A stretch of DNA of 64,000 nucleotides, from contig DAIF01000001.1 in the NCBI GenBank assembly GCA_002496015.1, forward strand, positions 8,752 to 72,751, read 5' to 3'. The position numbers and the translations under genes were made by a program. A model generated the notes under the pieces. The model did no database searches. It was not told the origin of the DNA and saw only the letters and a program-made list of their open reading frames with translations. The DNA comes from Candidatus Pacearchaeota archaeon UBA73. GTDB lineage: Archaea > Nanobdellota > Nanobdellia > Pacearchaeales > GW2011-AR1. Numbering within the stretch: the first letter of the stretch is position 1; each line of letters begins with the position of its first letter. This document shows, one piece after another, positions 7,332 through 63,351 of this stretch.

Positions 7332-9176
7332 TTAACATACAACACTAACTCGCTTCGTTACAACATTGTTTCCTAAATTAGCATCAACCGCCCCGTCCAA
7401 ATTCGCAGCGACAGTTAAATCGTAATTTCCCGTAGGAAGAGTTACATTTACTGTTCTTGTCCTGTCACTGGTCTTCCCTGGCGCAAGGCCGCTTATCGAC
7501 CCGTGTATCAGCTCCATGCTTCCCAAATACCCTGTGAATACCACATCCTCTGTGTAGTTCCCGAGATTTTTCGCGCGCACTGCAATTTGATATTTTTGAC
7601 CACACTCCAAAGGCGCTCCCGCAGGCACGTCATCGCCCTCGGTTGTTCTGACTCTTATCGTCCCTACGGCATTCGTAACGTTTACTAAGGCAATATCGTG
7701 AATCAAATCCGTTGCAGAAATGCACGCCCCATTTAAGCATCCATTCGGACACGTCTCAAACACGCGATCTTCTTCTCTGAAAGAGCAAACTCCGTTGCAG
7801 GAAAACAGTCTATATTTTTTGCCAACATCATTCCCCAAGCAAAATCCATTCCCAATAAATCCGTCTGTTCCGCAATCTTGGTTTTGAGAACATTCTGCAA
7901 ACGTCTTCCCACAAGAGACATGCACGCTCCTTTTAGCAACGTTATTCAAAAGGTTCGCGTCGGTAAATCCTGAAATAATTGCTTCAAACGTAAGCTCGTG
8001 GTCTCCTTCAGTCAATGTAAAGTTTATAGTTTTTGTCCTGTCGCTGGTCTTTCCACTTTCCAGACTGCTAACTTCTCCATGCTCAATATCTAATCCATCT
8101 GTCCCTCCAACAAAAGTTATGTTCTCTGTAAAATTTCCAAGGTTCCTAACCCGAATTGTAACTCTGTATTTTTCATCGCATTCCAGCGATTCATCCGCAA
8201 AAACTTCCACTCCATCTGTTGTCTGAATGCGGATGGGCCCAACAGTATTTGTAACATTTACAAGCGCGACATCGTGAATCAGTTGTGACGAACCAACACA
8301 AATTCCCTCGGCACATCCCTGCAAGCACGTTTCAACAACCCTGTTTTCGTCAGAATGAGAACATGCACTTTGCACAGTTCCGGCATTGTTGCATGTAAAT
8401 GTTCTAAACTTTCTAATTGCATTCCCATTCAGGCACATTCTATCCTCAACAAAACCGTCGCTGCCGCAGTCAACATCATCGTCGCATGCAGAGGATTCTT
8501 CCAGAGCGTTCAAAACAAACTTAACACATTCTTTAAACAATCCCTCCGCATCATCCGTCCAATATTCAGATTCGGTTATCCCAAAGAAGCAAGCAGCAGC
8601 CTTTGTAGTCTTGCCGTTTTCCAACTTAGAACCCGGTGCAAAATAAGCAATAACATCGTCATCTTTATTCTTTGAGCCAGCTTTTTTTGTAGATGCTGCG
8701 CAGTCCGCAGATTTCGCTTTATTGTCCGCAGAAAGATAATAATATTGAATAGTCCTACCCATTTTTCCTGAGCTAGCAGAATAAACTTTTAGTTCTTTAC
8801 CATGCGCAACGACTGTAAGCGGAGCATTCGCCACTTTTCTGCTCATTCCATCTCTATCAGTAATCCCAAACTTCTTTCCGTTGTATCCGCTCATCATTAC
8901 CATCGGAGCTTCTCCGAATTCTATTTCATCAACGCGCTTTAGTTTTTCATCTCCGATGTAAACTAATTTGTAATCTGAAAAATCTTTTGGCATCCTTCTT
9001 TCATCTATCCTTTCAACAGAAAGAGACATCTTCGAAAAAACATCTAAAACCCTTTCATCGACTTTAGATTCAGACCGATAAATGTAAGCCACATCAGCCG
9101 CATAAACCGAAGAAGCAAAAAGAGCGAAGAGGAACGCTACAAAAGCAAATCTGCAGAAGGCGAGATTCTTTTTCAT
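7332..9176 (-). CDS. Secreted protein with an internal tandem duplication (Cys-rich module plus CARDB-like beta domain, twice)
   Basis: 614 aa. Signal peptide MKKNLAFCRFAFVAFLFALFASSVYA. Two repeats share LIHDVALVNVTNTVGPIRIQTT...LECDEKYRVTIRVRNLGNFTE versus LIHDIALVNVTNAVGTIRVRTT...LECGQKYQIAVRAKNLGNYTE, each preceded by a CxxDxDCG...C module. Confidence 0.6.
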   Translation of the reverse strand: MKKNLAFCRFAFVAFLFALFASSVYAADVAYIYRSESKVDERVLDVFSKMSLSVERIDERRMPKDFSDYKLVYIGDEKLKRVDEIEFGEAPMVMMSGYNGKKFGITDRDGMSRKVANAPLTVVAHGKELKVYSASSGKMGRTIQYYYLSADNKAKSADCAASTKKAGSKNKDDDVIAYFAPGSKLENGKTTKAAACFFGITESEYWTDDAEGLFKECVKFVLNALEESSACDDDVDCGSDGFVEDRMCLNGNAIRKFRTFTCNNAGTVQSACSHSDENRVVETCLQGCAEGICVGSSQLIHDVALVNVTNTVGPIRIQTTDGVEVFADESLECDEKYRVTIRVRNLGNFTENITFVGGTDGLDIEHGEVSSLESGKTSDRTKTINFTLTEGDHELTFEAIISGFTDANLLNNVAKRSVHVSCGKTFAECSQNQDCGTDGFIGNGFCLGNDVGKKYRLFSCNGVCSFREEDRVFETCPNGCLNGACISATDLIHDIALVNVTNAVGTIRVRTTEGDDVPAGAPLECGQKYQIAVRAKNLGNYTEDVVFTGYLGSMELIHGSISGLAPGKTSDRTRTVNVTLPTGNYDLTVAANLDGAVDANLGNNVVTKRVSVVC

Positions 9177-9349: not shown

Positions 9350-11122
9350 CTATCTCAACTCGACAGTCAGCGTATAATCCCCTGAAGTGTCTTGCTGATA
9401 AAAATCCTGATCTATGTTCAGAAAATGTGTGCCTTTAACATCTCCCCCATATGGGCCTCCAGCAAGCCAATGTGTGCCAAACCAGGCATAGAGGGGGCTA
9501 GAAGCCTGAGGAGGATAATAAATTATCCTTCCTTCTAAACCGCTGCTTGGTGTCACCGTTACATAGATTTCTGGATTCCCTTCAGAGACAACAAATTTAT
9601 ACCAATCTTGGGTATCTCCCTTTCCTAAAAAGTCATTGATTGTTGCCACCCTGCCAGAAAAACTCAGTGATCTGGCGCAACCCTTAGAGTCATCTGAAGT
9701 ACACCCACTTCCTCCACCAGACCCTCCGCCTCCCCCGCCCGATCCGCCACCACTTCCTCCACCGGAACCGCCTCCCCCACTCCCGCCCCCCGAGCCCCCA
9801 CCTGAACCACCGCCGCCGCCAGATCCCCCGCCAAGTTCATATTCTAACTGTGCAAAATATGCCCGACCATAGAATTCTTCGCTTCCGGGCCATGCCAACG
9901 GCGCATCTCCATAAGTTCTTTCAACGCGAACTTTTCCATTAAACAAATCATCTTTTTCAAATACACTTATCCCTCGCTCAAAAACATGTAACCCTATCTG
10001 CGCAGGAGCCTCAACGACTGCGATCGCGTCCATCCGGTATTGCCTGCCGCCCGCCGAATCAGGAAAACAGTCTGCTCCATACATTTGCCCAGCGACACCA
10101 AAATCCAATCCAACCGACCCGACTTCCACACCGTAAAGGTATAACCTAGCACGCGGACCTACAACTGCAGAAGCGTAAGCCACTCCACCGATACAAAATT
10201 TTGGAGAACTGGTATTAATATTAAACTCTTGTCTGACTATCGGGTCCCACCCCTGTCCCTTCGCGTATCGTGCGCCAAGCTCAGTAAGGGAGGAAGCAGA
10301 GAAGTTTTGCCAGAACCGGCCATCACCAAGCATTTCAGTATAAAAGCGCGCCTCTAAATCAATCGTTGCAGTCACAACAACCGGCAGGTAACCGCCAATT
10401 AATCCATACACCGTTCCTCCCACCTCCTCAATGATAGGAATCTCTTCATAGTTCTGACCTTTGATGAGAAACCGTGAAAAAATATCTGTGTTTAATCCTG
10501 CAAAACCCTCAAAAGACATCTGGAATCTCTCGAGCCCGTGATTCTTGATTTCGAAGTCCAAGTTAAGATCTAACGAGGCATTAAATTCACCTTCAGCTCC
10601 GATGAAGAAAAGATCTTTATCAAGGGCTGCTTTGACACCCACATCCTCCTCCATCCACAAAATAGGAATTCCTGCAGACCTTAAACTTTCTTTATTAGCA
10701 ACAAATTCAAATTTTCCATTATCAACAACCTCCGTCAGAGGGACCGACTCTGTCTCAAGCGTAACTGTTTTCGTAGTGACGTTGGGATATCTGCTGCCCA
10801 CAACCCTACGAAGCGCACCCATCCCACTAGTTACTACGAAAACATCTCCTTCTTTCAAGTCGGTTTTAATATCAAAAAAATATCTAGCTCCATCTTTCCC
10901 ATGATATTCTTCGTCAGCTATTATCTTGACCGGATACCTCGGAGTTTGGACTGGTTCATTATGATTCTCTGCTACGGATGGCTCGCTACCGCCTCGGGAA
11001 TTTTCGGCAGGGGCATTCGGACAACCACTCATGAACATACCACCCAATCCGACAGCCGCAACTGGTAAAAATCTCTTCACGCGAGAAACTGTTCTCTCCA
11101 GAAAACTTGCCCCGTTTCTCAT
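9350..11122 (-). CDS. Secreted (possibly lipoprotein) protein with Gly/Ser linker and C-terminal PPC-like (pre-peptidase C-terminal) domain
   Basis: ORF track gives 9350..11188. Internal Met at 11122 yields a signal-peptide/lipobox-like MRNGASFLERTVSRVKRFLPVAAVGLGGMFMSGC. Linker GGGSGGGGGSGGGSGGG... C-terminus has DTQDWYKFVV..G, typical of PPC domains. Confidence 0.5.
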   Translation of the reverse strand: MRNGASFLERTVSRVKRFLPVAAVGLGGMFMSGCPNAPAENSRGGSEPSVAENHNEPVQTPRYPVKIIADEEYHGKDGARYFFDIKTDLKEGDVFVVTSGMGALRRVVGSRYPNVTTKTVTLETESVPLTEVVDNGKFEFVANKESLRSAGIPILWMEEDVGVKAALDKDLFFIGAEGEFNASLDLNLDFEIKNHGLERFQMSFEGFAGLNTDIFSRFLIKGQNYEEIPIIEEVGGTVYGLIGGYLPVVVTATIDLEARFYTEMLGDGRFWQNFSASSLTELGARYAKGQGWDPIVRQEFNINTSSPKFCIGGVAYASAVVGPRARLYLYGVEVGSVGLDFGVAGQMYGADCFPDSAGGRQYRMDAIAVVEAPAQIGLHVFERGISVFEKDDLFNGKVRVERTYGDAPLAWPGSEEFYGRAYFAQLEYELGGGSGGGGGSGGGSGGGSGGGGSGGGSGGGSGGGGGGSGGGSGCTSDDSKGCARSLSFSGRVATINDFLGKGDTQDWYKFVVSEGNPEIYVTVTPSSGLEGRIIYYPPQASSPLYAWFGTHWLAGGPYGGDVKGTHFLNIDQDFYQQDTSGDYTLTVELR

Positions 11123-11191
11123 AAATAATAAATTAATCCAAAGTATAAATACTTTGTGAACATTTATTAAGAAACTTCCGTTTATCAAAAA

Positions 11192-12865
11192 ATGAAGAAA
11201 AAAATCGCAAACACTCTCTCTAAAGAAACTTCTCTGTCAAATAAAGAAATCGAAGATCTCTTGGAAATTCCTCCCTCTCCCGAACTCGGCGACCTCGCCT
11301 TCCCTTGTTTCTCTCTCGCAAAAACTCTAAAAAAATCCCCTGCGCAAATCGCTGAAGAACTCGCAAAAAAACTTCGCATCAAAGGCACGGAAAAAATCGA
11401 GGCAAAAGGCCCATACGTTAATTTCTTCCTCGACAAATCTCAACTGGCTAAGGAAACAATTAGCGTAATTCTAAGACAAGGGGAAAAGTATGGTTATTCA
11501 AAAGTTTCTAAGGAAAATGTAATGATTGAATTTTCTCAGCCCAACACACATAAAGCATTTCATGTTGGTCACATTCGCGGAACCTCTCTAGGAGAATCTC
11601 TGGCACGAATTATGGAGTCACAAGGCAGTAGGGTTATTCGAGCAAATTACTCAGGCGATACAGGTATGCACATCGCAAAATGGCTTTGGTGCTATCAGAA
11701 ATTCCACTCTAAAGAAAAACTCAGGGACAATGAAGAATGGATAGCTTCTATTTATGTTGATGCTATAAAACGTTTAGCTGAAAAAGAATCTTCGCAAGAA
11801 GAAGTTGATGAAATAAATAGAAAGCTAGAATCGCGAGAAGACAAAAAACTCAACGAGTTATGGAAAAAAACCAGAATCGCTTCAATCAATTCTTGGAAAA
11901 AAATTTACAAGGAACTCAACACAAAGTTCGATGTCCACTATTTCGAGAGCGAAGTCGAGCAACCCGCAAAAAACTTCGCAAAAATGCTCCTGACAAAAAA
12001 AATAGCAGAAATTTCCGAAGGCGCGACAATAGTTGACTTAAAATCTTATAACTTGGGAGTTTTCCTCCTCTTACGAAAAGATGGCACCGTCCTTTATGGC
12101 GGAAAGGATATGTTTCTCGCAGAAAGGAAATTCAAAGAATTCAATCTGGACAAATCACTTTACGTCATAGGCAGAGAGCAAGACCTTTACATTCATCAGG
12201 TTTTCAAAACTCTTGAACTCATCAAATCGCCCGCAGCAGGCAAGAGTTTCTACGTTCCCGTTTCAGAAGTCAGACTTCCGTGGGGAAAAATGTCATCAAG
12301 AACAGGAGATAACGTTCTTTATTCTTCGTTTAAACAGGAACTTGTCAAATTGGCAAAATCAAAACTTGAGGAAAGACAAAAACTTCCGCCCAAAGAATTG
12401 GAAAGTCGCGCGCTCAAAATAGCCGTCGCCACAATGAAATATACTATGCTTAAACAAGATATAAACAAAAACATTATTTTTGATAAAGAAGAAGCAACAA
12501 GTTTCGAAGGCAACACCGGCCCGTACTTACTTTACACTTACGCTCGCGCAAAATCAATCCTAAGGAAAGCAAAATACAAAAAAGCAAACTTCAAAATCCC
12601 TCAGCTTTCAGATGAGGAAAAACAACTAATCCTCTCACTCTCCAAATTCCCAGAGGAAGTAAAAAAAGCACACGATTCCCTCGCACCGAACATCGTAGCA
12701 ACCTATGCTTATCAACTAGCTCAGCAGTTCAACGAATTTTACCACAAAACTAAAATCCTAGGTTCAGAAAACGAGCAGTTCGGTCTTACGTTAGTTGACG
12801 CTTTTTCTCAAACCCTAAGAAACTCCCTAAATCTCCTCGGAATCGAAGTCCTCGAAACGATGTAA
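11192..12865 (+). CDS. argS: Arginine--tRNA ligase
   Basis: 557 aa. Class-I HIGH region (PNTHKAFHVGHIRGTSLGE) and overall ArgRS layout, with a C-terminal DALR-like anticodon-binding region. Confidence 0.8.
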   Translation: MKKKIANTLSKETSLSNKEIEDLLEIPPSPELGDLAFPCFSLAKTLKKSPAQIAEELAKKLRIKGTEKIEAKGPYVNFFLDKSQLAKETISVILRQGEKYGYSKVSKENVMIEFSQPNTHKAFHVGHIRGTSLGESLARIMESQGSRVIRANYSGDTGMHIAKWLWCYQKFHSKEKLRDNEEWIASIYVDAIKRLAEKESSQEEVDEINRKLESREDKKLNELWKKTRIASINSWKKIYKELNTKFDVHYFESEVEQPAKNFAKMLLTKKIAEISEGATIVDLKSYNLGVFLLLRKDGTVLYGGKDMFLAERKFKEFNLDKSLYVIGREQDLYIHQVFKTLELIKSPAAGKSFYVPVSEVRLPWGKMSSRTGDNVLYSSFKQELVKLAKSKLEERQKLPPKELESRALKIAVATMKYTMLKQDINKNIIFDKEEATSFEGNTGPYLLYTYARAKSILRKAKYKKANFKIPQLSDEEKQLILSLSKFPEEVKKAHDSLAPNIVATYAYQLAQQFNEFYHKTKILGSENEQFGLTLVDAFSQTLRNSLNLLGIEVLETM

Positions 12866-13751: not shown

Positions 13752-14537
13752 ATGGCAAAAACAATCAAGGCCCAAGTAATCGTTGAACAACCAACCGTAG
13801 AATTTCCCGTAATCGAACACGAAGGAAGAGACCACGGTTTCAAATTATTTGGTCCCAAGACATACGAAGCAAATGTGGAAGAAATGCAAAGAACCAAATA
13901 TCGCTCTGCCAAATTCCCCGAAATCGCGCTCGCACCAGCAACAATTTCTCAATCTATTTCACTAGCGGTAGACAATCCAACTAAAACAAAATCGAAAACT
14001 CTCGATCTACTAGTGCTTCTTTTAGGGCCATATGTCCGAGCGTCAGAAGGAGTCTTCCTAAATCCTCCTAGAGACCTAAACGGCGAGATAGTTAAAGATG
14101 AAAGAACTCTCTATTCATTCTTAACAGGAACAGAAAGAGTCAACGGCATTTATGTTGTCAGAAACTCTGGTGTATTAAAGGATTTCGCCTTCGTTCCCGC
14201 AGACACTTATTTGCTTAAATTTCAAGAGCACGAGAAATTCTTAGAAGGCGGTCTTGCTAGGGGATTTGAACACGCGAACGGCCCAGTTAAAAGATTGCCT
14301 CTAATTGCTAACAGCAATTTTTATCCTAGCGGAGTTTACGTTTCTGAAGCATTTAAGTCAACAGGTCAATTTGGAAAAACAGAAATCAAGGTTGCCGGCT
14401 TGGCCTCCGGCTGGGGCAATGTCGGCTACAGGTTGAGCGTCGGCGGCGACAACTTCTACGGCTTCGACGGCTTCGACGGCTACGGCGGCTGTGCTTTTGG
14501 GGTGTTCGATGCTAGCGAAACAAAAAAAGACAATTAA
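13752..14537 (+). CDS. Hypothetical protein with Gly/Phe/Asp/Tyr-rich C-terminus
   Basis: 261 aa, no recognisable catalytic motif. C-terminus GWGNVGYRLSVGGDNFYGFDGFDGYGGCAFGVFD. Confidence 0.4.
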   Translation: MAKTIKAQVIVEQPTVEFPVIEHEGRDHGFKLFGPKTYEANVEEMQRTKYRSAKFPEIALAPATISQSISLAVDNPTKTKSKTLDLLVLLLGPYVRASEGVFLNPPRDLNGEIVKDERTLYSFLTGTERVNGIYVVRNSGVLKDFAFVPADTYLLKFQEHEKFLEGGLARGFEHANGPVKRLPLIANSNFYPSGVYVSEAFKSTGQFGKTEIKVAGLASGWGNVGYRLSVGGDNFYGFDGFDGYGGCAFGVFDASETKKDN

Positions 14538-14569
14538 CAAAACTTAAATACCTCTTACAATTTCTAAAA

Positions 14570-14832
14570 CCGGTGCGGACGAGTCTGCGCGCTAGCCCCG
14601 CGCAATTCACAAACGGGCTTCATGGTGGACTTAAAGGAACGCGTGACGCAAAGAACGCGAAGTCTTGCCTCTAACGTTGAGGTTTTGTCCTGCTCGACCG
14701 TACTCTTGCGAACCGGGTCAGGCCTTGATCGGAGCAGCCCTAAGTGGGAAGTATGGTGCTTGTAGGGTAGCAAAGCTGAGGAAGTCGCAAGGTCGCTTCA
14801 CGCTCAATGCCGGGCCAGTTCCCCGCCGCACC
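14570..14832 (+). ncRNA. Signal recognition particle RNA (7S/SRP RNA), candidate
   Basis: A ~260-nt GC-rich island in an AT-rich genome. 5' end CCGGUGCGG pairs with 3' end CCGCCGCACC. Contains the helix-8-like motif GGGUCAGGCC...GGAGCAGCC (compare bacterial/archaeal GGUCAGGNCC-GGAA-GGNAGCAGCC). A TATA-like cttaaata sits ~25 nt upstream. Overlapping ORFs 14564..14773 and 14665..14910 are taken as spurious. Confidence 0.6.
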
Positions 14833-14906
14833 TTAATCCTCATGTACTTAAAATTCTCAACAGGAAAAAACACAAATCCTAAATACTCCTTCCGTCATTT
14901 ATCCGG

Positions 14907-15464
14907 ATGAACAAAAGAGGGCAGTTCTTTCTTCTTGCAGCAGTAGTTATTATCGCAGTTTTATTCGGATTGACAACAATCTACACTACAGTCGAAACTC
15001 CCTTAGAGGATAGCTCAGTATATGACCTCACAAAAGAAATAAAATATGAAGCGGGAGTCGTTATAGACAGCGGGATATTTAACGCCCTAACTGAAGGACA
15101 GCGCAACAAAAACGTCGAAAACCTCACAGATTATTACGCTTCGGCAAACCTCGGAACAGATTTCATAGTCATCTACGGGAATCAGACCGAGATGATTGCA
15201 TTGCTTTACACTACAGAAGACACGGGAAGCGTGGGGATAGATATAGGTACTACAACTCCTGTAACCTACTACGATGACTTGAGAAAATACAACGCCACTT
15301 TCTTCATACCTCAGGGAGACGATGAAGTGACCGTAGTGTTGGATAGAAATGAAAATGAAGAAATAAAATACACTTTTCGAATAAAACCCGGAGAGATGTT
15401 CTTCCTCATACTCAAGAAAGAGCGCCAAGGCGAACAATTCGTTTCCGCCTCAAGAGAGCAATAG
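14907..15464 (+). CDS. Archaeal type IV pilin-like protein (class III signal peptide)
   Basis: MNKRGQFFLLAAVVIIAVLFGLTTIY: a KRG motif followed by a hydrophobic helix, the PibD/FlaK-type prepilin signal. Confidence 0.6.
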   Translation: MNKRGQFFLLAAVVIIAVLFGLTTIYTTVETPLEDSSVYDLTKEIKYEAGVVIDSGIFNALTEGQRNKNVENLTDYYASANLGTDFIVIYGNQTEMIALLYTTEDTGSVGIDIGTTTPVTYYDDLRKYNATFFIPQGDDEVTVVLDRNENEEIKYTFRIKPGEMFFLILKKERQGEQFVSASREQ

Positions 15465-27003: not shown

Positions 27004-29796
27004 CTATAAATTGGGTCGTTTAATAAATCTTGTGTCTATCGGGCGCCCTCCTTGCTGTTTTTCTAATTCTTTTCTCACCTTTCTGTTTTCTGCAAACTTG
27101 AACAATGGTATCTCCCACATGCCGGTTCTTTTTCCTTCCAGTTTCCTGAACGCATAAGTTATCTGTTCCGAAGTCCACTTCCGCCCACGAAGCGTTTCTT
27201 TTATTGCTGTATCTTTTAGTCCATTCCTTCTGGAGTTGTAGATGAAGTTCAATAAGTTATACAAGTCATTCGAGTTCGGGAAAAGGTGTTTCTCATAATT
27301 ATGTTTGTACCACCATTGTAACAAGAGATAAACCGCTAGAAAGAAAACAAGTATGATGGATAGGCTTATCAGAAACCTTCTCCAAAGAAAATTTCCCTCG
27401 GGATCGCAATTCTCTAACCAACATTTTATAATCGGTCTTGTGTCAATTCCTAAGCTGGAAGGCGGCGGCGAGATATACACACCAAGATTCATTATCCCCG
27501 GAGAACTCGCTCCAACAATCGCGAATTCCGCACTCGTTATCGGCTCCATCTTTATTTCAGCATACGTCCCCCCACTGACACTCGTCTCTCTGAACCTATC
27601 TCCACCGGAAATAAATGTTAATGCATTCTTGGGATATCCTATAACTAAGTACGCAGAATCTGTTTCAGGATCTTTTTTCTCGACAAGAGTTATTTTATAA
27701 GTCTTAAGTATCTCTGTTTCTTGAATCTCGTTTTTCGCAGAGATTGCTTCAAAAGTTATCTGCACATCATAATGTTCCATCATCCAGCCGAACACACTCG
27801 CTTTTAATTCGTCTTCATCAGGCGGCACTTCATCAATCCCTGCTATTTCCATAACATGCGCCATATTAGCCTTTTCATATCCTATTTCTGCCGGCAGAGT
27901 CCCGGTGGCGCTTGTATAAACAGAACTTGGCAGATCAATGCTTAATAAGTCATCTATGATTGAGATGTAACTGCTCTCCGGAGCATTTTCACTCAATGCT
28001 TCAAACTCCTGTTTCTTAGATTGAATAAAAGATTTTTTGGTTTCAATTCCTAACGCGCTGGATAAGATAGTTCTCACTGCAGTTGGATACGTGCTTATAT
28101 CTGATTCTAAGTTTGCTATCCTCGCTTCATAATCTCTCAGGATAAGACTCGCAGAGGTCTTGGCTTCTCCGACTATTACTGTGAACCTTTTCGTTGAATT
28201 TAAGCCAGAACCCCTCACAAGGGTCACTTTGACAGCGTATTCTCCGTCTGATTCAAAGGTATGCTTCACACTTGTCCCTTGAACTGTGATAGGAGACGCG
28301 CCATCTCCAAATTCCCAAATCGAGTGGGTGACATTGACTGCCGACCTCGCCGTGAAAATAGTCTCTCTGCCGATGTATGCAAATCTCGGTGTGACTTCGA
28401 AAGAAAATCCTATGTCCACATCAATAATCTTTTCAATAACTTCTTCTCCTCCTAAAAACAATCTGAACGTATGTTTTCCATCCTCATTTGGGACTTTGAA
28501 ATCCATTTCTTCTACAGGTATCATCGTCCAACCAGTGCTTACTCTTGCAGGCCTTTCTCGTAGTTCATATATCATCGCAGGGTTTTGACTCCGCCTAGTC
28601 CCCGATCCAATTCTATATCCCAATTTTCCGCCATACAATAATTGCCCTTCAGCAGGCATGCCCCAGATGCTGAATGGAATTACGCAACCATCTTCGCCAG
28701 AGCAATTCATACCATAGGTATAGTTAAGGTACTCTGCCACGTCATCTCTCAGATTTCGGTCTGTTATGGTTTCATAGGTATTTCTGTCAAACCTGACATA
28801 ACTTACGCTCTCAAAACCCCTCGGCTTGATAAACAAATCAAAATCTAATTCAAAATCGTCCTTCGATACTCTATCTCCAGGTTCAAACACTAATCCGCAA
28901 GTCTCTCTGTCATCCTCATTTGTATTTATCGTGAAATAGTCAGCAAATCTTTCCTCAGTATAAACACAGACAAGAGCGTCAAATTTCTCGAGCGCAGAGT
29001 GATTTATCACTACAGGAAATTCCGTGCCTACTGAAAGAGGCAGCCCATTTAACCACCCCCCGCCGTAAGCGTCTCCCCCGTCCAAGGGGTACATTGCAAA
29101 TGCTAAATTACCTCCGCTCTTAAGAACATTAATCTTCCCTCCAATTTCATACGATGCCGCAGGAGGAATGTCTTTCATATACTCACAATACAACTCTCTG
29201 CCTATCGGTACATCTCCTTCCGAATCTTCTTCGTCAAAGCATCCACGATTTTTCAAGGTTATCGGATAAAAGACACTTCCGCAGGTTAAAGAACCGGCGC
29301 GGGGTTTTGTGTTGTAATAATCTATTTTACCATCGTCAAACAAATCAATATATATCTGATTCCAACAGGTTTGGCTTACATAGACATCAACCCAAAATTC
29401 CAACTCGTCAAAGTTTGATACGATTCTGTCAGACTCTTTTATTCTAAAACCATAAGTTCTCTTCTCTTCGCCCAACGTTATTCTCTTAGCAGTCTCTCCG
29501 TTTAGTGCAGCATAATAACTTAGGCAACTTACAGGATCGCAAGTATAAGCACTTCCTTTTGTCAGATTCATCGCATTAAAAACATCAAGCAGCCTTATTT
29601 TCTGGTCATTTAAGCTATTAGTGAAATAGACATTTTCTTGTCTGTCAAAGCTCATATTCAAAATGCCTGAAACCACATCCCCTTCTAGGTAATTTCCATC
29701 GATATAAGAAGAGTTTTTTCTGATTGAGAAATCAGCAGCGCTGACTAAGCTTACTGCCAAAAAAAATCCGACTAAAAATAAACTTCCTTTCTTCAT
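27004..29796 (-). CDS. Large secreted surface protein with C-terminal TM anchor and cytoplasmic tail
   Basis: 930 aa. Signal peptide MKKGSLFLVGFFLAVSLVSA; TM FLISLSIILVFFLAVYLLLQWW near the C-terminus. Confidence 0.6.
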   Translation of the reverse strand: MKKGSLFLVGFFLAVSLVSAADFSIRKNSSYIDGNYLEGDVVSGILNMSFDRQENVYFTNSLNDQKIRLLDVFNAMNLTKGSAYTCDPVSCLSYYAALNGETAKRITLGEEKRTYGFRIKESDRIVSNFDELEFWVDVYVSQTCWNQIYIDLFDDGKIDYYNTKPRAGSLTCGSVFYPITLKNRGCFDEEDSEGDVPIGRELYCEYMKDIPPAASYEIGGKINVLKSGGNLAFAMYPLDGGDAYGGGWLNGLPLSVGTEFPVVINHSALEKFDALVCVYTEERFADYFTINTNEDDRETCGLVFEPGDRVSKDDFELDFDLFIKPRGFESVSYVRFDRNTYETITDRNLRDDVAEYLNYTYGMNCSGEDGCVIPFSIWGMPAEGQLLYGGKLGYRIGSGTRRSQNPAMIYELRERPARVSTGWTMIPVEEMDFKVPNEDGKHTFRLFLGGEEVIEKIIDVDIGFSFEVTPRFAYIGRETIFTARSAVNVTHSIWEFGDGASPITVQGTSVKHTFESDGEYAVKVTLVRGSGLNSTKRFTVIVGEAKTSASLILRDYEARIANLESDISTYPTAVRTILSSALGIETKKSFIQSKKQEFEALSENAPESSYISIIDDLLSIDLPSSVYTSATGTLPAEIGYEKANMAHVMEIAGIDEVPPDEDELKASVFGWMMEHYDVQITFEAISAKNEIQETEILKTYKITLVEKKDPETDSAYLVIGYPKNALTFISGGDRFRETSVSGGTYAEIKMEPITSAEFAIVGASSPGIMNLGVYISPPPSSLGIDTRPIIKCWLENCDPEGNFLWRRFLISLSIILVFFLAVYLLLQWWYKHNYEKHLFPNSNDLYNLLNFIYNSRRNGLKDTAIKETLRGRKWTSEQITYAFRKLEGKRTGMWEIPLFKFAENRKVRKELEKQQGGRPIDTRFIKRPNL

Positions 29797-34376: not shown

Positions 34377-35672
34377 TTAGTATGCCGGCTGCTTTATTTG
34401 CAAAAACACCAGGAATATGACATTTAAAACCGCGATGATTCCTACAGCCATAATGCTAAGCTGAGTGGGACCAAACCCCACATTCAATCCTGAAATTGCC
34501 ATCATAACTATCATCAATAAAAATACCATTGGCGCTGCAATGACAATGCTGATATAAATGTCAAGAAACGTTTCGACAAGTCTGGTGTATTTTTCTCTTT
34601 CTAATCTGTATGACAACAGAAGGCTCTCCGCTCTTTTCTCAAAATATTCCGACAAGTTCGCTCCGGATGTTATCGTTACTGAAAGCCCTGCGAACAGTTC
34701 GGCAAGCTTTTCACTCGGAGCAGTTTTTGCGGCATTGTTTAATGCAGTTGTCAGGTCATATCCGTAGAGATTTATCTGATTAAGCACCTTGCGTATTTCT
34801 TTCCTGAGGAAGGGATAATCTCTGCTCAATCCTATGATGCGGAAAATCTCTGTCGGCTCTATTCCCGCACCGGTAATCGCGCTCATATGAATAACTGCAA
34901 AAGGAAGTTCCTGATCAATCCTTGTTCCAAGAGATTTTTTCTCAGTTGAAGGATAATAATAAATCGCCAAAAACGTTAGGATAGGTATAGCTATTGGTAG
35001 CAAGATAAGTTTTGATGCGGCCGCAAGATACCCTGATGTTCTCAACTCCAAAAATGGCCATACTGGTATCGTGCTAAAAAACGTGAAGAACAGCCCCGCA
35101 AAAAACGCAACAACAAAAGCTATCAAAACAGTGAGATATATCATGGCGACATACGATTCAAATAAAATTTCCATATTTGCCTTTCGCAGGCTTTCACCAA
35201 GGTTCCGAAAGCTCCCCTTTCTTACAATCTTGCTAGCTGCGGAAAGAAAAAGCCGATTCGCTAATTTCAGATACCCCCTAGATGCCTTGAACTCCGTGAA
35301 CTTATCTTGCTCTTCTATGTCCCTCAGTTTTATTTTTCTCATGAAGTTATCGCTGATATTCAACTCCTTCAAGAATTTTGCTTTGTCCTTTGAGTGCAGC
35401 ACGACCTCTAATCCCGAGCCAAGTCCGCGGTATTTTACAAGCTCTAACTTCTTGTCCTTGCCCGAAGGGAGCTTCTTTGCCACTGAGATGTCTTTGAGAA
35501 GTGCCAGAGTGTTGTCATTTATTATCCTCATTCCTTCAACGATAGAATTTATCGCGCCGTCTAAAAGTTTCTTCTCATCGTCTGCAGCAGAGTCATATCG
35601 AGCAGCATAGCTCGCAATCTCTCTGAGCATAGATATTTCTGTTTCAATATTTTTCCTAAGCTCGTCTATCAT
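34377..35672 (-). CDS. FlaJ/TadC-like pilus platform membrane protein, N-terminal half
   Basis: 431 aa. Cytoplasmic T2SS-F-like domain followed by TM helices; typical platform partner of the FlaI/TadA ATPase. Confidence 0.55.
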   Translation of the reverse strand: MIDELRKNIETEISMLREIASYAARYDSAADDEKKLLDGAINSIVEGMRIINDNTLALLKDISVAKKLPSGKDKKLELVKYRGLGSGLEVVLHSKDKAKFLKELNISDNFMRKIKLRDIEEQDKFTEFKASRGYLKLANRLFLSAASKIVRKGSFRNLGESLRKANMEILFESYVAMIYLTVLIAFVVAFFAGLFFTFFSTIPVWPFLELRTSGYLAAASKLILLPIAIPILTFLAIYYYPSTEKKSLGTRIDQELPFAVIHMSAITGAGIEPTEIFRIIGLSRDYPFLRKEIRKVLNQINLYGYDLTTALNNAAKTAPSEKLAELFAGLSVTITSGANLSEYFEKRAESLLLSYRLEREKYTRLVETFLDIYISIVIAAPMVFLLMIVMMAISGLNVGFGPTQLSIMAVGIIAVLNVIFLVFLQIKQPAY

Positions 35673-35830
35673 AGCAAATCTTGAATCTGTTTCTGAAAAA
35701 TCATGATTTCTCGTTTTGCAGAATTCAACCTCTCAGCATCTTTGTTCCGCTCGGCAACAGCGAGCCTCTCTACAGCATCTTTCATGGCCGCCAAAAGCTG
35801 AGCTATGACTACAATATCCTCATTTTTCAT
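35669..35830 (-). CDS. Small ORF (53 aa) translationally coupled to the platform gene
   Basis: MKNEDIVVIAQLLAAMKDAVERLAVAERNKDAERLNSAKREIMIFQKQIQDLL. Its stop overlaps the start of 34377..35672 as ATGA. TATA-like tttatatag about 30 nt upstream. Manual translation. Confidence 0.3.
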   Translation of the reverse strand: MKNEDIVVIAQLLAAMKDAVERLAVAERNKDAERLNSAKREIMIFQKQIQDLL

Positions 35831-35909
35831 AAGCTAAAAAGAAAAATCTTGTTTATATAGTTTTCAATTTCTCTGGCTTCGCTAAAACCTCACTTGCGCT
35901 CAAGTTCAG

Positions 35910-37439
35910 TTATTCTCTTATCCCATATCTCTGCAACACTGCGACCGGATTTTTGTGAAACTCGTTCACCACCCACCCGACCTGGTCAAAATCAAATACT
36001 CCTTTGCGATAAAGCGTGTAAAGAAGTTTAGCGCGAGTTACCAAATCCTTGTATAGTTTATCAATAGGCGTTCCGGTGCGCATCGCAATTTTCTCAAGTA
36101 CCTTGCTCTGCTTCTTTGAATAAAAAATATCTTTTCCGGCATCCCACTTGAAAGGTGTATTCACAATCGCAGTTCCATCCGCATTTACATTCACTATCTC
36201 TACAATTTCTCTCACTTTTCTGGTCTCCTGTTTCCCGACGCGTGCATGCGTGGCAACAACTACACAATCTAATGTATTTACCAATGTGGGCGACAAACTG
36301 ATTGGTGGAGTTTGTAATCTTCTGATAAGCGTGTCAACAGAATCAGAGTGCATCGTGCTTATTGAAGAGTGTCCGGAAGCCATGCCCTGAAACAATACGA
36401 ATGCTTCTTTTCCTCTGACTTCTCCCACTATCAAATAGTCAGGAGTCTGCCTAAAAGAAGCTTTTAAAATTTCAAATAAATCTATCTCTCCAACCTTCCC
36501 AACTCCGATCGAAGTTCTCGCAACAGCCGGCAGCCAGTTTTCTCTGGGGAGATTAATCTCGCGGGTGTCCTCGATACTTACAACTCTCGCCTCCGGCGAA
36601 ATGAAAAATGCAAGTGCATTCAGCAAGGTAGTCTTACCTGATGCGGTTCCACCAGCAACGAGAATATTTGATTTATTCTCTATCAACAGCCAGAAATACG
36701 CGAGCATCTCCGGAGACAATGTATTCATCGCAATCAACTGAATCGGAGTCCAGGGAATCTTCGTGAATTTTCTTATTGTAAACGTGGGTCCGCGCGAAGA
36801 AACATCTTTAGTGTAAGTAGCATTAACTCTCGAACCGTCCGGCAGCGTTCCGTCAAGCAACGGCTGTGCATAAGAAACATACCTCCCGGTGCGCTGAGCT
36901 AATTTCTCTACAAAACTCGCGAGTTTGTCTATATCTCTGTAAACTATATTCGTTCTAAGATTTCTGAAAACCCTATGCACAATAAATATCGGTGTGTTCG
37001 CCCCATTGCATTCTATGTCCTCTATAAAATAATCTCGCAGCAAGGGATCTACTTCATTCAGTCCGATAAAATCTCTAAACAAGTAGTAGAATATCTTTTT
37101 GTAACTCTCAGAAGTTATCTTTATATTCAATTCGTCAATCAATAGTCTCGCAGTCTTGTCAATATAGTTCGTCGTGGCTTCAAGCGTGTTTTCAACAGCG
37201 ACGTTGACGTTTATTAGCTCTAGCATTGCCTCTTCGACCCTCGTAAGCAGAGCTTTCTCTTCTTCGGTGAGGATTGGTTCTTCAAGCTCATAAACTAGTT
37301 CATTGATTTTACTATCCCAAAATATATGTGCCGACGCATAAGGCGAAATTAGCATATACCTGACATCAACTCCCCTTTTATCTTTGTAACGTGGAATCGG
37401 CGGAACAGCCGGATTCAAGTTGATCTTTTCAACCATCAA
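35910..37439 (-). CDS. Type IV pilus/archaellum-type assembly ATPase (FlaI/TadA/GspE-VirB11 family)
   Basis: 509 aa. Walker A LVAGGTASGKTT; Walker B/Asp box IVGEVRG; His box. Confidence 0.8.
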   Translation of the reverse strand: MMVEKINLNPAVPPIPRYKDKRGVDVRYMLISPYASAHIFWDSKINELVYELEEPILTEEEKALLTRVEEAMLELINVNVAVENTLEATTNYIDKTARLLIDELNIKITSESYKKIFYYLFRDFIGLNEVDPLLRDYFIEDIECNGANTPIFIVHRVFRNLRTNIVYRDIDKLASFVEKLAQRTGRYVSYAQPLLDGTLPDGSRVNATYTKDVSSRGPTFTIRKFTKIPWTPIQLIAMNTLSPEMLAYFWLLIENKSNILVAGGTASGKTTLLNALAFFISPEARVVSIEDTREINLPRENWLPAVARTSIGVGKVGEIDLFEILKASFRQTPDYLIVGEVRGKEAFVLFQGMASGHSSISTMHSDSVDTLIRRLQTPPISLSPTLVNTLDCVVVATHARVGKQETRKVREIVEIVNVNADGTAIVNTPFKWDAGKDIFYSKKQSKVLEKIAMRTGTPIDKLYKDLVTRAKLLYTLYRKGVFDFDQVGWVVNEFHKNPVAVLQRYGIRE

Positions 37440-61392: not shown

Positions 61393-62169
61393 ATGAAACA
61401 AATCAATCAAAGAATAGCAGAAACTGGAATTTTTGTATTTAGTTATGACCCCCAAACTAGAAAGTTCACATATTCGCGTCCTTTCACGACAAAAGAAGCA
61501 AAAGACTTAGCTGAACAAACCAATGCAACAATTAATTCTCAATATAAAGGTGTTAAGGGTCTAAGAAAAGGTCTTGCAGCTAAAAATGGCAAATTAGTTA
61601 ATATGAGTACGCTTAAAGGAATCGTCGCAAATAGGGTTCTTATGCAATCTACAAATGCCCAACAATGGTTGCCGACAATTCAAGAAGGAATCACCTTACA
61701 AAGAGCGGGAATGTTTCCTTCAGGAATTTTGATTGATATAGGTATTGCTTTATACAATGAACAAGCCCCCAATAAAGAAATTGCCAAATCTTTAGCTAAT
61801 GAAGGGAGATATGTTTTGCCCGTTTTAGCTTCATTCAAATCTCTTGATTTATCCCTCGGAGGAAAAAGATACGGCGTCACTCCTCGATTAGTTTCGGCGG
61901 ATGGCTTAACCTCTGGAAAAGATGCAACAAAATTAATGCAGGCCAATTCTTTTTATCAAGGAGAAGGTACAGGAGTTCGCGGGGTGTGCCACAGCAACGG
62001 CGACTTCTGGTGTGCCGATTGGAACGACGACTTGGGCTACTTCTACGAGGACTGTCGGGTGGGTCGTTTTTCTGCCAAAGGCAGCGCGCAAAAATTGGAG
62101 GAAGAGGCTTTAGGCGCGTTTGCTCCAATCAGAAAAAGCCTAGATTCGGTTCTTGCTCTGGCACAATAA
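61393..62169 (+). CDS. DGR target (variable) protein; VR lies in its C-terminal region
   Basis: 258 aa. The C-terminal segment VCHSNGDFWCADWNDDLGYFYEDCRVGRF is the protein product of the VR (template-like repeat lies downstream). The CRVGRF ending resembles C-type-lectin/FGE-like DGR variable domains. Confidence 0.65.
   Translation: MKQINQRIAETGIFVFSYDPQTRKFTYSRPFTTKEAKDLAEQTNATINSQYKGVKGLRKGLAAKNGKLVNMSTLKGIVANRVLMQSTNAQQWLPTIQEGITLQRAGMFPSGILIDIGIALYNEQAPNKEIAKSLANEGRYVLPVLASFKSLDLSLGGKRYGVTPRLVSADGLTSGKDATKLMQANSFYQGEGTGVRGVCHSNGDFWCADWNDDLGYFYEDCRVGRFSAKGSAQKLEEEALGAFAPIRKSLDSVLALAQ
61981..62064 (+). repeat. DGR variable repeat (VR)
   Basis: ~80-nt match to TR at 62351..62434; 17 of 20 mismatches are at positions where TR has A. 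Confidence 0.7.
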
Positions 62170-62350
62170 AACATTTAAAGAATATTTTCTTAATTTTACT
62201 CCTAGCCAAATGGCTGGGCCACACGCTGGTTAATAGCGCTCGTAATTGAGTCATAAAATACAATCATTGCATCTAGTAAACAGTGAATCGATGGATGAGT
62301 TGAAATTTACAATGATGGTGAAACTTTGATTAATCAGCTACACAGTTCTC

Positions 62351-62434
62351 AGGGTGTACTGCAACAACGACGGCAACTGGAATGCCAATTGGAACGACAA
62401 CTTGGACAACTTCAACGAGAACTGTCGAATGGCC
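62351..62434 (+). repeat. DGR template repeat (TR), AAC-rich, immediately upstream of RT
   Basis: gtg tac tgc aac aac gac ggc aac tgg aat gcc aat tgg aac gac aac ttg gac aac ttc aac gag aac tgt cga. Non-coding (preceded by an in-frame TGA, no ATG) and AAC-codon-rich as in DGR TRs. Confidence 0.7.
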
Positions 62435-62451
62435 TGGCTTGCTAGGAAAAA

Positions 62452-63351
62452 ATGAAAACTTATAGTAACTCGCACAAAAAAATAATCTCTTTTGAAAATC
62501 TTATCCTAGCTTGGAAAAAAGCTAGAAAAGGTAAAACTAAAAAAGATTATGTTATAAAGTTTGAAGATGAATTATTCTGTAATCTAATGGCCCTTCATTA
62601 TGAATTAAAATTCCATGCTTATTCGCCACGTCCGCTCGTAACTTTCATCTTGCGCGACCCAAAAACTCGGGTAATTTCAAAATCCGACTTTAGAGATAGA
62701 ATTGTTCATCACGCTATTTGCAATATCATTGAGCCAATATTTGACAAAACTTTCATCCATGATTCGTGTTCAAACAGAAAGAACAAGGGAAATTTATTTG
62801 CCCTCATGCGTTTACAAAAATTTATCAGAAAGATATCAAAAAACGGATTAATTGCAAAAAATAAATTTCAGGACAATAATTTTGTAGTCGGATACTGTCT
62901 AAAAGCAGACATCAAACACTATTTTCAAGAAGTTGATCACAATATTCGCTACGTAGATGATTTTGTTATCTTACATCGCTCTAAAGAACAGTTGGTCTTG
63001 TGGAAAGAGCAGATTAATAACTTTCTGAAAGAAAATTTAAAGATTGAACTACACTCTCAAAAATCAAGGATCATTCCGCTTTCAAAAGGGATAGACTTTG
63101 TAGGATTTCGAAATTTTTATCACTATAAACTTCCGAGAAAAAGAAATATAAGAAAAATGCAGAGAAGAATTCAAGCATTTCTCGAAGAAGAAATTTCATA
63201 CCAAGAATTAATGGAAAGTTATCAAGGTTGGCAGGCGTATGTAAAATGGTCGAGCTCTCTTAACTTAAGAAGAAATTTGTTAAAAGAAATTCAGAAAGTA
63301 AAACAATCTCTAGTCGAGAAGAGAAAAACATCCTTACAGCATTCTCGCTAA
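62452..63351 (+). CDS. DGR-type reverse transcriptase, apparently lacking the motif 4/B region
   Basis: N-terminus matches DGR RTs (ENLILAWKKARKGK; ISKSDFRDRIVHHAICNIIEPIFDKTFIHDSCSNRKNKG). Motif A LKADIKHYFQEVDH is followed after only 3 residues by motif C YVDDFVIL. Thumb-like GIDFVGFRNF. Confidence 0.75.
   Translation: MKTYSNSHKKIISFENLILAWKKARKGKTKKDYVIKFEDELFCNLMALHYELKFHAYSPRPLVTFILRDPKTRVISKSDFRDRIVHHAICNIIEPIFDKTFIHDSCSNRKNKGNLFALMRLQKFIRKISKNGLIAKNKFQDNNFVVGYCLKADIKHYFQEVDHNIRYVDDFVILHRSKEQLVLWKEQINNFLKENLKIELHSQKSRIIPLSKGIDFVGFRNFYHYKLPRKRNIRKMQRRIQAFLEEEISYQELMESYQGWQAYVKWSSSLNLRRNLLKEIQKVKQSLVEKRKTSLQHSR

Follow-up and report, generated by a model that had tools for sequence, protein, structure and literature searches.

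Introduction

Is the GC-rich island at positions 14572–14832 of a 64 000-nucleotide (nt) stretch from Candidatus Pacearchaeota archaeon UBA73 (GenBank assembly GCA_002496015.1, contig DAIF01000001.1, positions 8752 to 72 751) a gene for signal recognition particle (SRP) RNA and, if so, of what kind? The whole stretch is called the window hereafter, and its first letter is position 1. Helix 6 of the SRP RNA, the SRP19 protein and a GRRA loop on helix 8 have been regarded as features of all Archaea and Eukarya (PMC2905702). According to the same review, published in 2010, SRP19 and helix 6 are found side by side in every archaeal subgroup, GRRA is the only archaeal helix 8 loop listed, and an adenosine clamp between helices 6 and 8 is probably found in all archaea. 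The reading preferred here, at a probability of roughly 0.85, is that the island is the SRP RNA of a Woesearchaeota/Pacearchaeota-type DPANN archaeon, with its own promoter (B recognition element, BRE, and TATA box), that it has lost helix 6 and carries a URRU apex on helix 8, and that it likely belongs to a two-component particle of SRP54 and RNA.

Identity of the RNA

The gene lies on the plus strand (as do all parts of the RNA described below), is 261 nt long and contains helices 1, 2, 3, 4, 5 and 8; helix 6 is absent. An original prediction, made from the sequence alone, had proposed a GC-rich structured RNA of about 260 nt at 14570–14832, most likely SRP (7S) RNA. The GC-rich island is real: its GC content is 58.6%, against 41.7% window-wide and 44% and 40% in the flanks, and only 0.16% of segments of equal length are as GC-rich. 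The SRP identity also stood, since only SRP models match in Rfam, 54 homologues show covariation and the flanking genes are archaeal.

A local stretch of 501 nt was searched permissively with the Rfam models. Archaea_SRP (RF01857) was the best model of the SRP clan (CL00003), with 79.7 bits (E = 3e-18) and an alignment from end to end (model positions 1–317), below its gathering score of 96.5. Bacteria_large_SRP (RF01854) gave 63.8 bits (E = 3.4e-7 for the whole window; model positions 1–256), which exceeds its gathering score of 60; this is the sole SRP call for the window at Rfam gathering thresholds. The covariance-model search that had been recommended as a check therefore came out in two ways: the archaeal model is indeed the best, but at curated thresholds the RNA is called ‘Bacterial large SRP’. 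No match to RNase P RNA or to any other non-SRP family was found in the permissive search of the region, a comparison that had also been recommended. That the island is some other structured RNA with an SRP-like hairpin, such as RNase P RNA, a 6S-like RNA or a member of a further family, is hardly credible. Generic GC richness and the uninformative folding of the single sequence would leave room for it; however, the SRP match is full length and includes an Alu domain with a covarying loop–loop tertiary pairing, and the models found are those of the SRP clan only.

Two open reading frames (ORFs) overlap the gene, one on the minus strand (14564..14773, 69 amino acids) and one on the plus strand (14665..14910, 81 amino acids). 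They exist as originally listed, and the warning that ORF callers would report them wrongly was justified: the frames contain stops in 47 and 45 of the 54 homologues, respectively. Both have TTG starts and neither has a family match. The explanation that either ORF is a protein-coding region and that the RNA-model matches are coincidental deserves almost no credence. Both frames are open in the window, but substitutions among the homologues track base-pair compensation and not codon structure, and a conserved promoter is placed for the RNA 5′ end. It is secure that 14572–14832 is a real SRP RNA gene overlapped by two spurious ORFs.

The candidate promoter (14537..14551) consists of an A-rich BRE-like stretch (14537–14542) and the TATA box CTTAAATAC (14543–14551), whose centre lies some 25 nt before the 5′ end of the RNA, where the original prediction had placed a TATA-like box. 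The consensus aaAA..TTTAAAAAC is found at equal upstream distance across the 55 full-length members of the RNA family described below, and a TTTAWAWAC box with an upstream A-rich stretch, at equal spacing, is present in nearly all of them. This arrangement suggests that 14537–14551 acts as a promoter. The 3′ end of the RNA is followed by TTAAT; T-rich tracts after the 3′ end are present in many relatives and may serve for termination.

Homologues and covariation

A homologue of about 262 nt was found directly downstream of the arginyl-tRNA synthetase (ArgRS) gene in the loci of six relatives, and a seventh copy is truncated by the end of its contig. The metagenome-assembled genomes (MAGs) of relatives with the compact RNA have the whole-genome shotgun prefixes JAHISS01, DANJ01, JBDRCQ01, JBBSZK01, CAYHBQ01 and CAYHLN01. 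A covariance model, R1, was built from the seven synteny-derived sequences; it gives 269 bits for the window RNA. Metagenomes were scanned for the invariant helix 8 core with the canonical C-GGAA-G apex excluded, which yielded at least 120 loci. With R1, at least 48 full-length members of 260–270 nt were recognized among these; the rest are truncated copies or bacterial 4.5S RNAs.

An explicit canonical SRP architecture was tested on the alignments: helices 1–4, the loop–loop pseudoknot between helices 3 and 4, and helices 5 and 8. In the alignment of seven sequences, 95% of cells are paired and 36 pairs show double changes, against 5–8 in slid controls. When 54 distinct homologues were aligned with MAFFT, blind to structure, 92.1% of cells were paired. 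Double changes occur in 62 of 83 pairs (27–37 in slid controls), compensated cells number 648 (97–166 in slid controls) and none of 500 shuffles reaches the observed values. This covariation supports helices 1–5 and 8 and the loop–loop contact of the Alu domain. A de novo RNAalifold structure was rejected: the rod of helices 5 and 8 was recovered, the Alu domain was mis-assigned, with the loop–loop contact drawn as a helix, and the explicit architecture tested better.

Structure of the RNA

The RNA is closed by helix 1, whose 5′ strand (14572..14581, A14579 bulged) pairs with the 3′ strand at 14824..14832, which according to the pairing tables also forms the 3′ end of the RNA. As had been noticed from the sequence, the ends are complementary: GGUGCGG (14572–14578) pairs with CCGCACC (14826–14832), with compensatory changes in relatives. 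Exchanges between C-G and U-A and between G-C and A-U are found in this helix across the family, and the canonical pairing of the 5′ and 3′ ends is present. Of the span first proposed, the 3′ end was retained, and the paired structure begins at 14572 and not at 14570.

The core of the Alu (small) domain (14582..14631), which is of the archaeal/Bacillus type, is made of helices 2–4 and a loop–loop pairing, with compensatory changes in every helix. These are helix 2 (14582–14585 with 14628–14631), the helix 3 hairpin with the loop CUAGCCC (14586–14604) and the helix 4 hairpin (14608–14627). The tertiary pairing AGCCC/GGGCU (14594–14598 with 14615–14619) is a pseudoknot between the loops of helices 3 and 4; 100% of its cells are paired, with C-G to U-A covariation at two positions (9 and 2 sequences). 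The UGUNR motif that links helices 3 and 4 is degenerate in the window RNA (AAUUC). Relatives have CAUUC, CGUUU or UGUAC at this position, and UGUUA in the relative at locus L052. Deviations from UGUNR are known in other archaeal groups too (review PMC2905702).

Helix 5 is long. In its 5′ strand (14636..14709), 84–100% of cells are paired and most pairs show double changes; the 3′ strand (14744..14823) is placed by the pairing table and covariation. An internal loop, ACGUUGA (14674–14680), faces GAGGA (14778–14782), and its residues are invariant or nearly so; it may correspond to the 5e/5f hinge or to the distal GTPase-docking region. Beside the Alu domain (14636–14650 with 14810–14823), a further internal loop of helix 5 is strictly conserved: 5′ G-N-G-U-N-A faces 3′ G-N-G-C-N-A, flanked by a covarying GGAR/YUCC stem. 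A kink-turn was considered for this loop and dismissed by eye, as the consensus was not fitted.

Absence of helix 6 and the helix 8 apex

Helix 6, the hairpin on which SRP19 docks, is cleanly absent. At its branch site (14704..14707), just before helix 8, 2 nt replace about 40 positions of the RF01857 model. In the Archaea_SRP alignment the missing block is an 18-bp hairpin with a GgAG tetraloop (GNAR type), and it is wholly deleted in the relative L052. No insertion at the helix 6 junction was seen in the 48 full-length metagenome members among the matches listed. The 55 full-length family members all measure 260–270 nt, against 317 positions in the RF01857 model. A terminator-like hairpin, CCUC-UAACGUU-GAGG (14669–14683), was examined as a displaced helix 6 and rejected: it is not conserved, and the competing long-range pairs of helix 5 covary.

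Helix 8, the SRP54 M-domain binding site of the S domain, extends over 14710..14743. Its motif GGGUCAGGCC...GGAGCAGCC at 14715–14740, which had been likened to SRP RNA domain IV, does align, in both SRP models, to the consensus of helix 8. The helix contains an asymmetric loop (GAACC/UAA), a stem (GGGU/GCCC), a symmetric loop (CAGG/AGCA) and a distal stem (CC/GG). It is invariant in the seven relatives found through ArgRS synteny, which are the only unbiased sequences for this region. Its apical loop, UUGAUC (14725..14730), has a UGAU (URRU) flanked by U and C in place of the archaeal GGAA tetraloop. Six of the seven relatives found by synteny share the UUGAUC apex, as do 41 of the 48 metagenome members among the matches listed. 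Minority apices of the family are UUGACC (three members), UUGAAC, UUGAUU and A-GGAA-U, the last kept in L002, L041 and L052. Because the UUGAUC loop is strongly conserved across otherwise diverged sequences, it appears to be under selection, which argues against simple decay. Its GAUC palindrome was considered as a dimerization signal and rejected, being broken by the variants UUGACC, UUGAAC and UUGAUU. The adenosine clamp between helices 6 and 8 cannot form, since helix 6 is missing and the apex is UUGAUC and not GRRA. The A-GGAA-U members suggest that helix 6 was lost first and that the apex was re-specified later.

What the original prediction could not show is that the RNA is no standard archaeal 7S RNA: it lacks helix 6, its helix 8 loop is non-GNRA and its archaeal score is sub-threshold. 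One could still read it as a canonical 7S RNA (helices 1–6 and 8, GGAA apex, SRP19-dependent) whose low score reflects divergence in a fast-evolving DPANN genome, as Archaea_SRP scores best and aligns end to end and L052 passes the archaeal gathering score with 108.7 bits. This is very improbable. Even in L052 the entire helix 6 hairpin is deleted, all 55 members are short of the model, the apex is not GRRA, the covariation-supported structure holds no unrecognized insertion elsewhere that replaces helix 6, and the SRP19 family PF01922 is absent in 152 Woesearchaeota genomes (PMC8421398). Compared with the canonical RNAs of Methanocaldococcus jannaschii and Archaeoglobus fulgidus (RF01857), the window RNA shares the archaeal host and promoter, the closing of the ends by helix 1, Alu helices 2–4 with their loop–loop contact, a long helix 5 whose internal loops are conserved, and the loops of helix 8. 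It differs by the lack of helix 6, the UUGAUC apex, a length shorter by about 55 nt, the degenerate UGUNR motif and a sub-threshold score, and its partner SRP19 is reported absent from the phylum.

Host and probable archaeal ancestry

The genes near the RNA are archaeal. Their products are aCPSF1 (810 bits), Mre11/Rad50, the beta subunit of an archaeal proteasome and a CCA-adding enzyme domain of archaeal type. Among GTDB genomes, ArgRS has its nearest relatives in MAGs labelled Woesearchaeota, Pacearchaeota or Nanoarchaeota (best identity 66%). Because of the archaeal neighbour genes and these ArgRS relatives, the host is identified as a DPANN archaeon of Woesearchaeota/Pacearchaeota type. 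The conserved promoter upstream of the RNA, which is of archaeal kind, speaks for such a host too.

The RNA family was scored with the clan models in 20 relatives. Archaea_SRP was the best model in all 20 (66.6–108.7 bits); in the permissive search, 19 of them remained below the RF01857 gathering score (66.6–89.2 bits) and L052 passed it. At gathering thresholds, the 20 loci, each with a full-length member, gave no SRP call in 12 cases, bacterial large SRP in 5, bacterial small SRP in 3 and archaeal SRP in none.

These calls raise the question of a bacterial origin, namely that a large, Bacillus-like SRP RNA was gained by horizontal transfer in a DPANN ancestor and replaced the native 7S RNA. 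The RF01854 gathering score is passed by the window RNA (63.8 against 60) and by 5 of the 20 relatives. The helix set 1–5 plus 8 without helix 6 and a URRU/URRC apex are bacterial traits, and this counts against the archaeal ancestry preferred here. Bacterial small SRP RNAs retrieved with the same helix 8 pattern, that is the 4.5S RNAs, have UUGACC or UUAACC apices; URRC and URRU are documented alternative apical loops in bacterial SRP RNAs (PMC4091067). Many bacterial genes occur in DPANN genomes, and the adjacent ArgRS itself has Chloroflexi relatives at 37–40% identity. Transfer of the RNA is nevertheless unlikely. The archaeal model outscores the bacterial models in the window and in each of the 20 relatives, although it pays for a 40-position deletion. 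The GGAA apex in L002, L041 and L052 and the UGUNR motif in L052 look like intermediates of erosion in place. No SRP RNA adjoins ArgRS in the Chloroflexi loci, and loss of SRP19 accounts for the change of the RNA, so that transfer is unneeded.

The resemblance to bacterial RNAs is nonetheless close in some respects. Like the large SRP RNA of RF01854 (Bacillus subtilis scRNA), the window RNA has helices 1–5 and 8, no helix 6 and a length of about 260–270 nt, passes the gathering score and presumably belongs to a particle in which SRP54/Ffh is the sole protein required on the S domain. Unlike it, it has an archaeal host and promoter and is fitted better by the archaeal model, and no Alu-domain partner such as HBsu is implied. 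With the 4.5S/small RNAs that carry URRC or URRU (PMC4091067) it shares a non-GNRA helix 8 apex and the same flanking U and C, whereas those RNAs lack the Alu domain and come from bacteria. The permuted and circularized SRP RNA of Thermoproteus (PMC4731332) is another archaeal SRP RNA that departs from the canonical gene model and hence was missed by standard searches. There the RNA is reportedly rearranged with all helices kept and SRP19 encoded; here helix 6 and, reportedly, SRP19 are gone.

A 271-nt helix-6-less SRP RNA was also found at L104:684–954. Its UGUAA motif is intact, its apex is UUGACG, and in Rfam it is called as Bacteria_large_SRP (88.8 bits). Its contig encodes a Hef nuclease (819 bits), a FlaI-type ATPase and an archaeosortase, and represents a second, more divergent archaeal lineage.

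SRP19 and the other protein partners

PF01922.12 (SRP19) is among five archaeal CheckM markers absent from all 152 Woesearchaeota genomes (Huang et al. 2021, PMC8421398), and PF01922 is absent in Parvarchaeales and Jingweiarchaeales too (PMC10134863). Both papers treat this absence as completeness bookkeeping only. It matches an RNA without helix 6. Published data show that SRP54 is present in Woesearchaeota. In Haloferax, deletion of SRP19 is tolerated with no transport phenotype, and archaeal SRP54 binds 7S RNA without SRP19 (PMC2905702, PMC6098224).

A profile search for SRP19 in a large protein collection reached only relatives of the query (Methanococci, Archaeoglobi, vertebrates) and has no bearing on DPANN. 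The supplements of three DPANN papers yielded nothing on SRP19; a ‘Transfer’ flag on the SRP54 orthogroup is non-specific. Full-text literature searches turned up no description of a helix-6-less archaeal SRP RNA, nor any paper in which the absence of SRP19 is connected with the RNA. This compact archaeal SRP RNA variant is widespread and, as far as the searchable literature shows, previously undescribed.

Proposed particle

The RNA has kept the helix 8 loops for binding of the SRP54 M domain, the Alu domain and the conserved internal loops of helix 5. It lacks the one element for which docking of SRP19 and clamping of the helix 8 tetraloop are the known functions. In the proposed scheme, the RNA would be transcribed from its own BRE/TATA promoter and would be bound by SRP54, giving a particle of two components assembled without the SRP19 step. 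The particle would recognize signal sequences, and it would engage FtsY through the URRU apex, which may act in receptor docking as in some bacterial SRPs, including those of bacteria with large SRP RNAs. In evolution, helix 6 would have been lost first and the helix 8 apex re-specified afterwards. The particle probably works as a two-component SRP54–RNA SRP, as in bacteria.

Besides the bacterial traits already named, several points weigh against this proposal. Secondary-structure folding, the other check recommended at the outset, was uninformative: on single-sequence folding, the energy of the RNA is no better than that of shuffled sequences (z = −0.18 and −0.19 on the two strands). The claim that the RNA is structured rests for this reason on the covariance-model matches and on covariation, not on thermodynamics. 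The ends at 14572 and 14832 are those predicted from helix 1 and the promoter. The metagenome set was retrieved with a pattern containing the helix 8 core, and the invariance of helix 8 in that set is partly by construction. A local SRP19 hidden Markov model, built from 120 sequences that had been collected with a PDB-validated query, found no SRP19 in the window and 62 family loci (534 kb), a small genome fraction that makes this result nearly uninformative. A motif scan for SRP GTPases found no SRP54 or FtsY in the same 534 kb either, so the SRP19 negative is weak. Finally, the absence of SRP19 rests on MAGs other than the source genome, and a divergent protein missed by PF01922 can exist.

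We lean slightly towards the wider claim that the Woesearchaeota/Pacearchaeota, as an entire radiation that is abundant in the environment, and at least one further archaeal lineage (L104) run a naturally SRP19-free and helix-6-free SRP with a conserved URRU apex. If this is true, an SRP19-free lineage is a natural experiment that answers whether Archaea require SRP19. RNA and protein evidence would then agree, across a large lineage, on the loss of the whole helix 6/SRP19 module, and this would indicate that in nature the bacterial two-component mode is workable for an archaeal SRP. SRP54, the 261-nt RNA and FtsY would make a defined system for the contribution of SRP19 and of the helix 6/8 clamp. 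If the state is ancestral in deep-branching DPANN and not derived, it would also have a bearing on the time at which this module appeared in the ancestry of eukaryotes. The loss would also give a mechanistic reason for the systematic absence of PF01922 and would support dropping this marker from completeness estimates of these genomes.

The consequences for annotation are practical. With the curated thresholds of Rfam, most of these genes escape detection (12 of 20) and the others are called bacterial (8 of 20). Such misannotation can feed spurious ORFs, wrong conclusions of a ‘missing SRP RNA’ and, for DPANN MAGs, unfounded flags of contamination. The gap would be mended by a covariance model dedicated to these RNAs.

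Other features of the window and of the relatives' loci

In the window, ArgRS (11192–12865) and the SRP RNA are separated by an ORF of 261 amino acids (13752–14537), whereas in the relatives the RNA directly follows ArgRS. This ORF, which lies directly upstream of the SRP promoter, has no Pfam or NCBIfam match and ends in a GC-rich repeat of GFDGFDGYGG type. The closest relatives of ArgRS outside DPANN (loci L023–L039) are Anaerolineae/Chloroflexi proteins with 37–40% identity, which hints at an interdomain transfer of this protein. Contigs with a DPANN-like ArgRS that are labelled Aminicenantes (L005) or Methanosarcinales (L009, L010, L020) are probably mis-binned.

tRNA genes of 120–160 nt occur in the relatives' loci (L003:27–150, L019:124–244, L053:7351–7512 and 7793–7919, L084:3835–3965). 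They presumably contain introns, consistent with archaeal hosts. A ‘Plastid-ycf2’ match in L081 is a false positive: it is below threshold and overlaps a tRNA on the opposite strand.

The only island of the window that is GC-richer than the SRP RNA (62.5%) lies at 9645–9905 within an ORF on the minus strand (9350–11188). It was rejected as an RNA gene, since its product is a long (GGGS)n Gly/Ser linker, part of a protein of 612 amino acids that has an N-terminal hydrophobic segment and no family match. Many large ORFs of the window lack a family match, which is typical of DPANN.

A diversity-generating retroelement is located at 61393–63351. Its variable repeat of 89 nt (61974–62062) is at the 3′ end of an ORF of 258 amino acids without a Pfam match. 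The template repeat (62344–62432) is 78% identical to the variable repeat, with differences mostly at template adenines. An RT-16 RNA (RF03019, 75.6 bits, 62201–62346) lies between the two repeats, and the reverse transcriptase ORF (RVT_1) follows at 62452–63351. The intervals 34377–37439 and 27004–29796 hold a pair of genes for a secretion ATPase and a membrane platform protein like those of type IV pili or archaella (T2SSE, T2SSF) and, near these, the gene of a PKD-domain surface protein of 930 amino acids.

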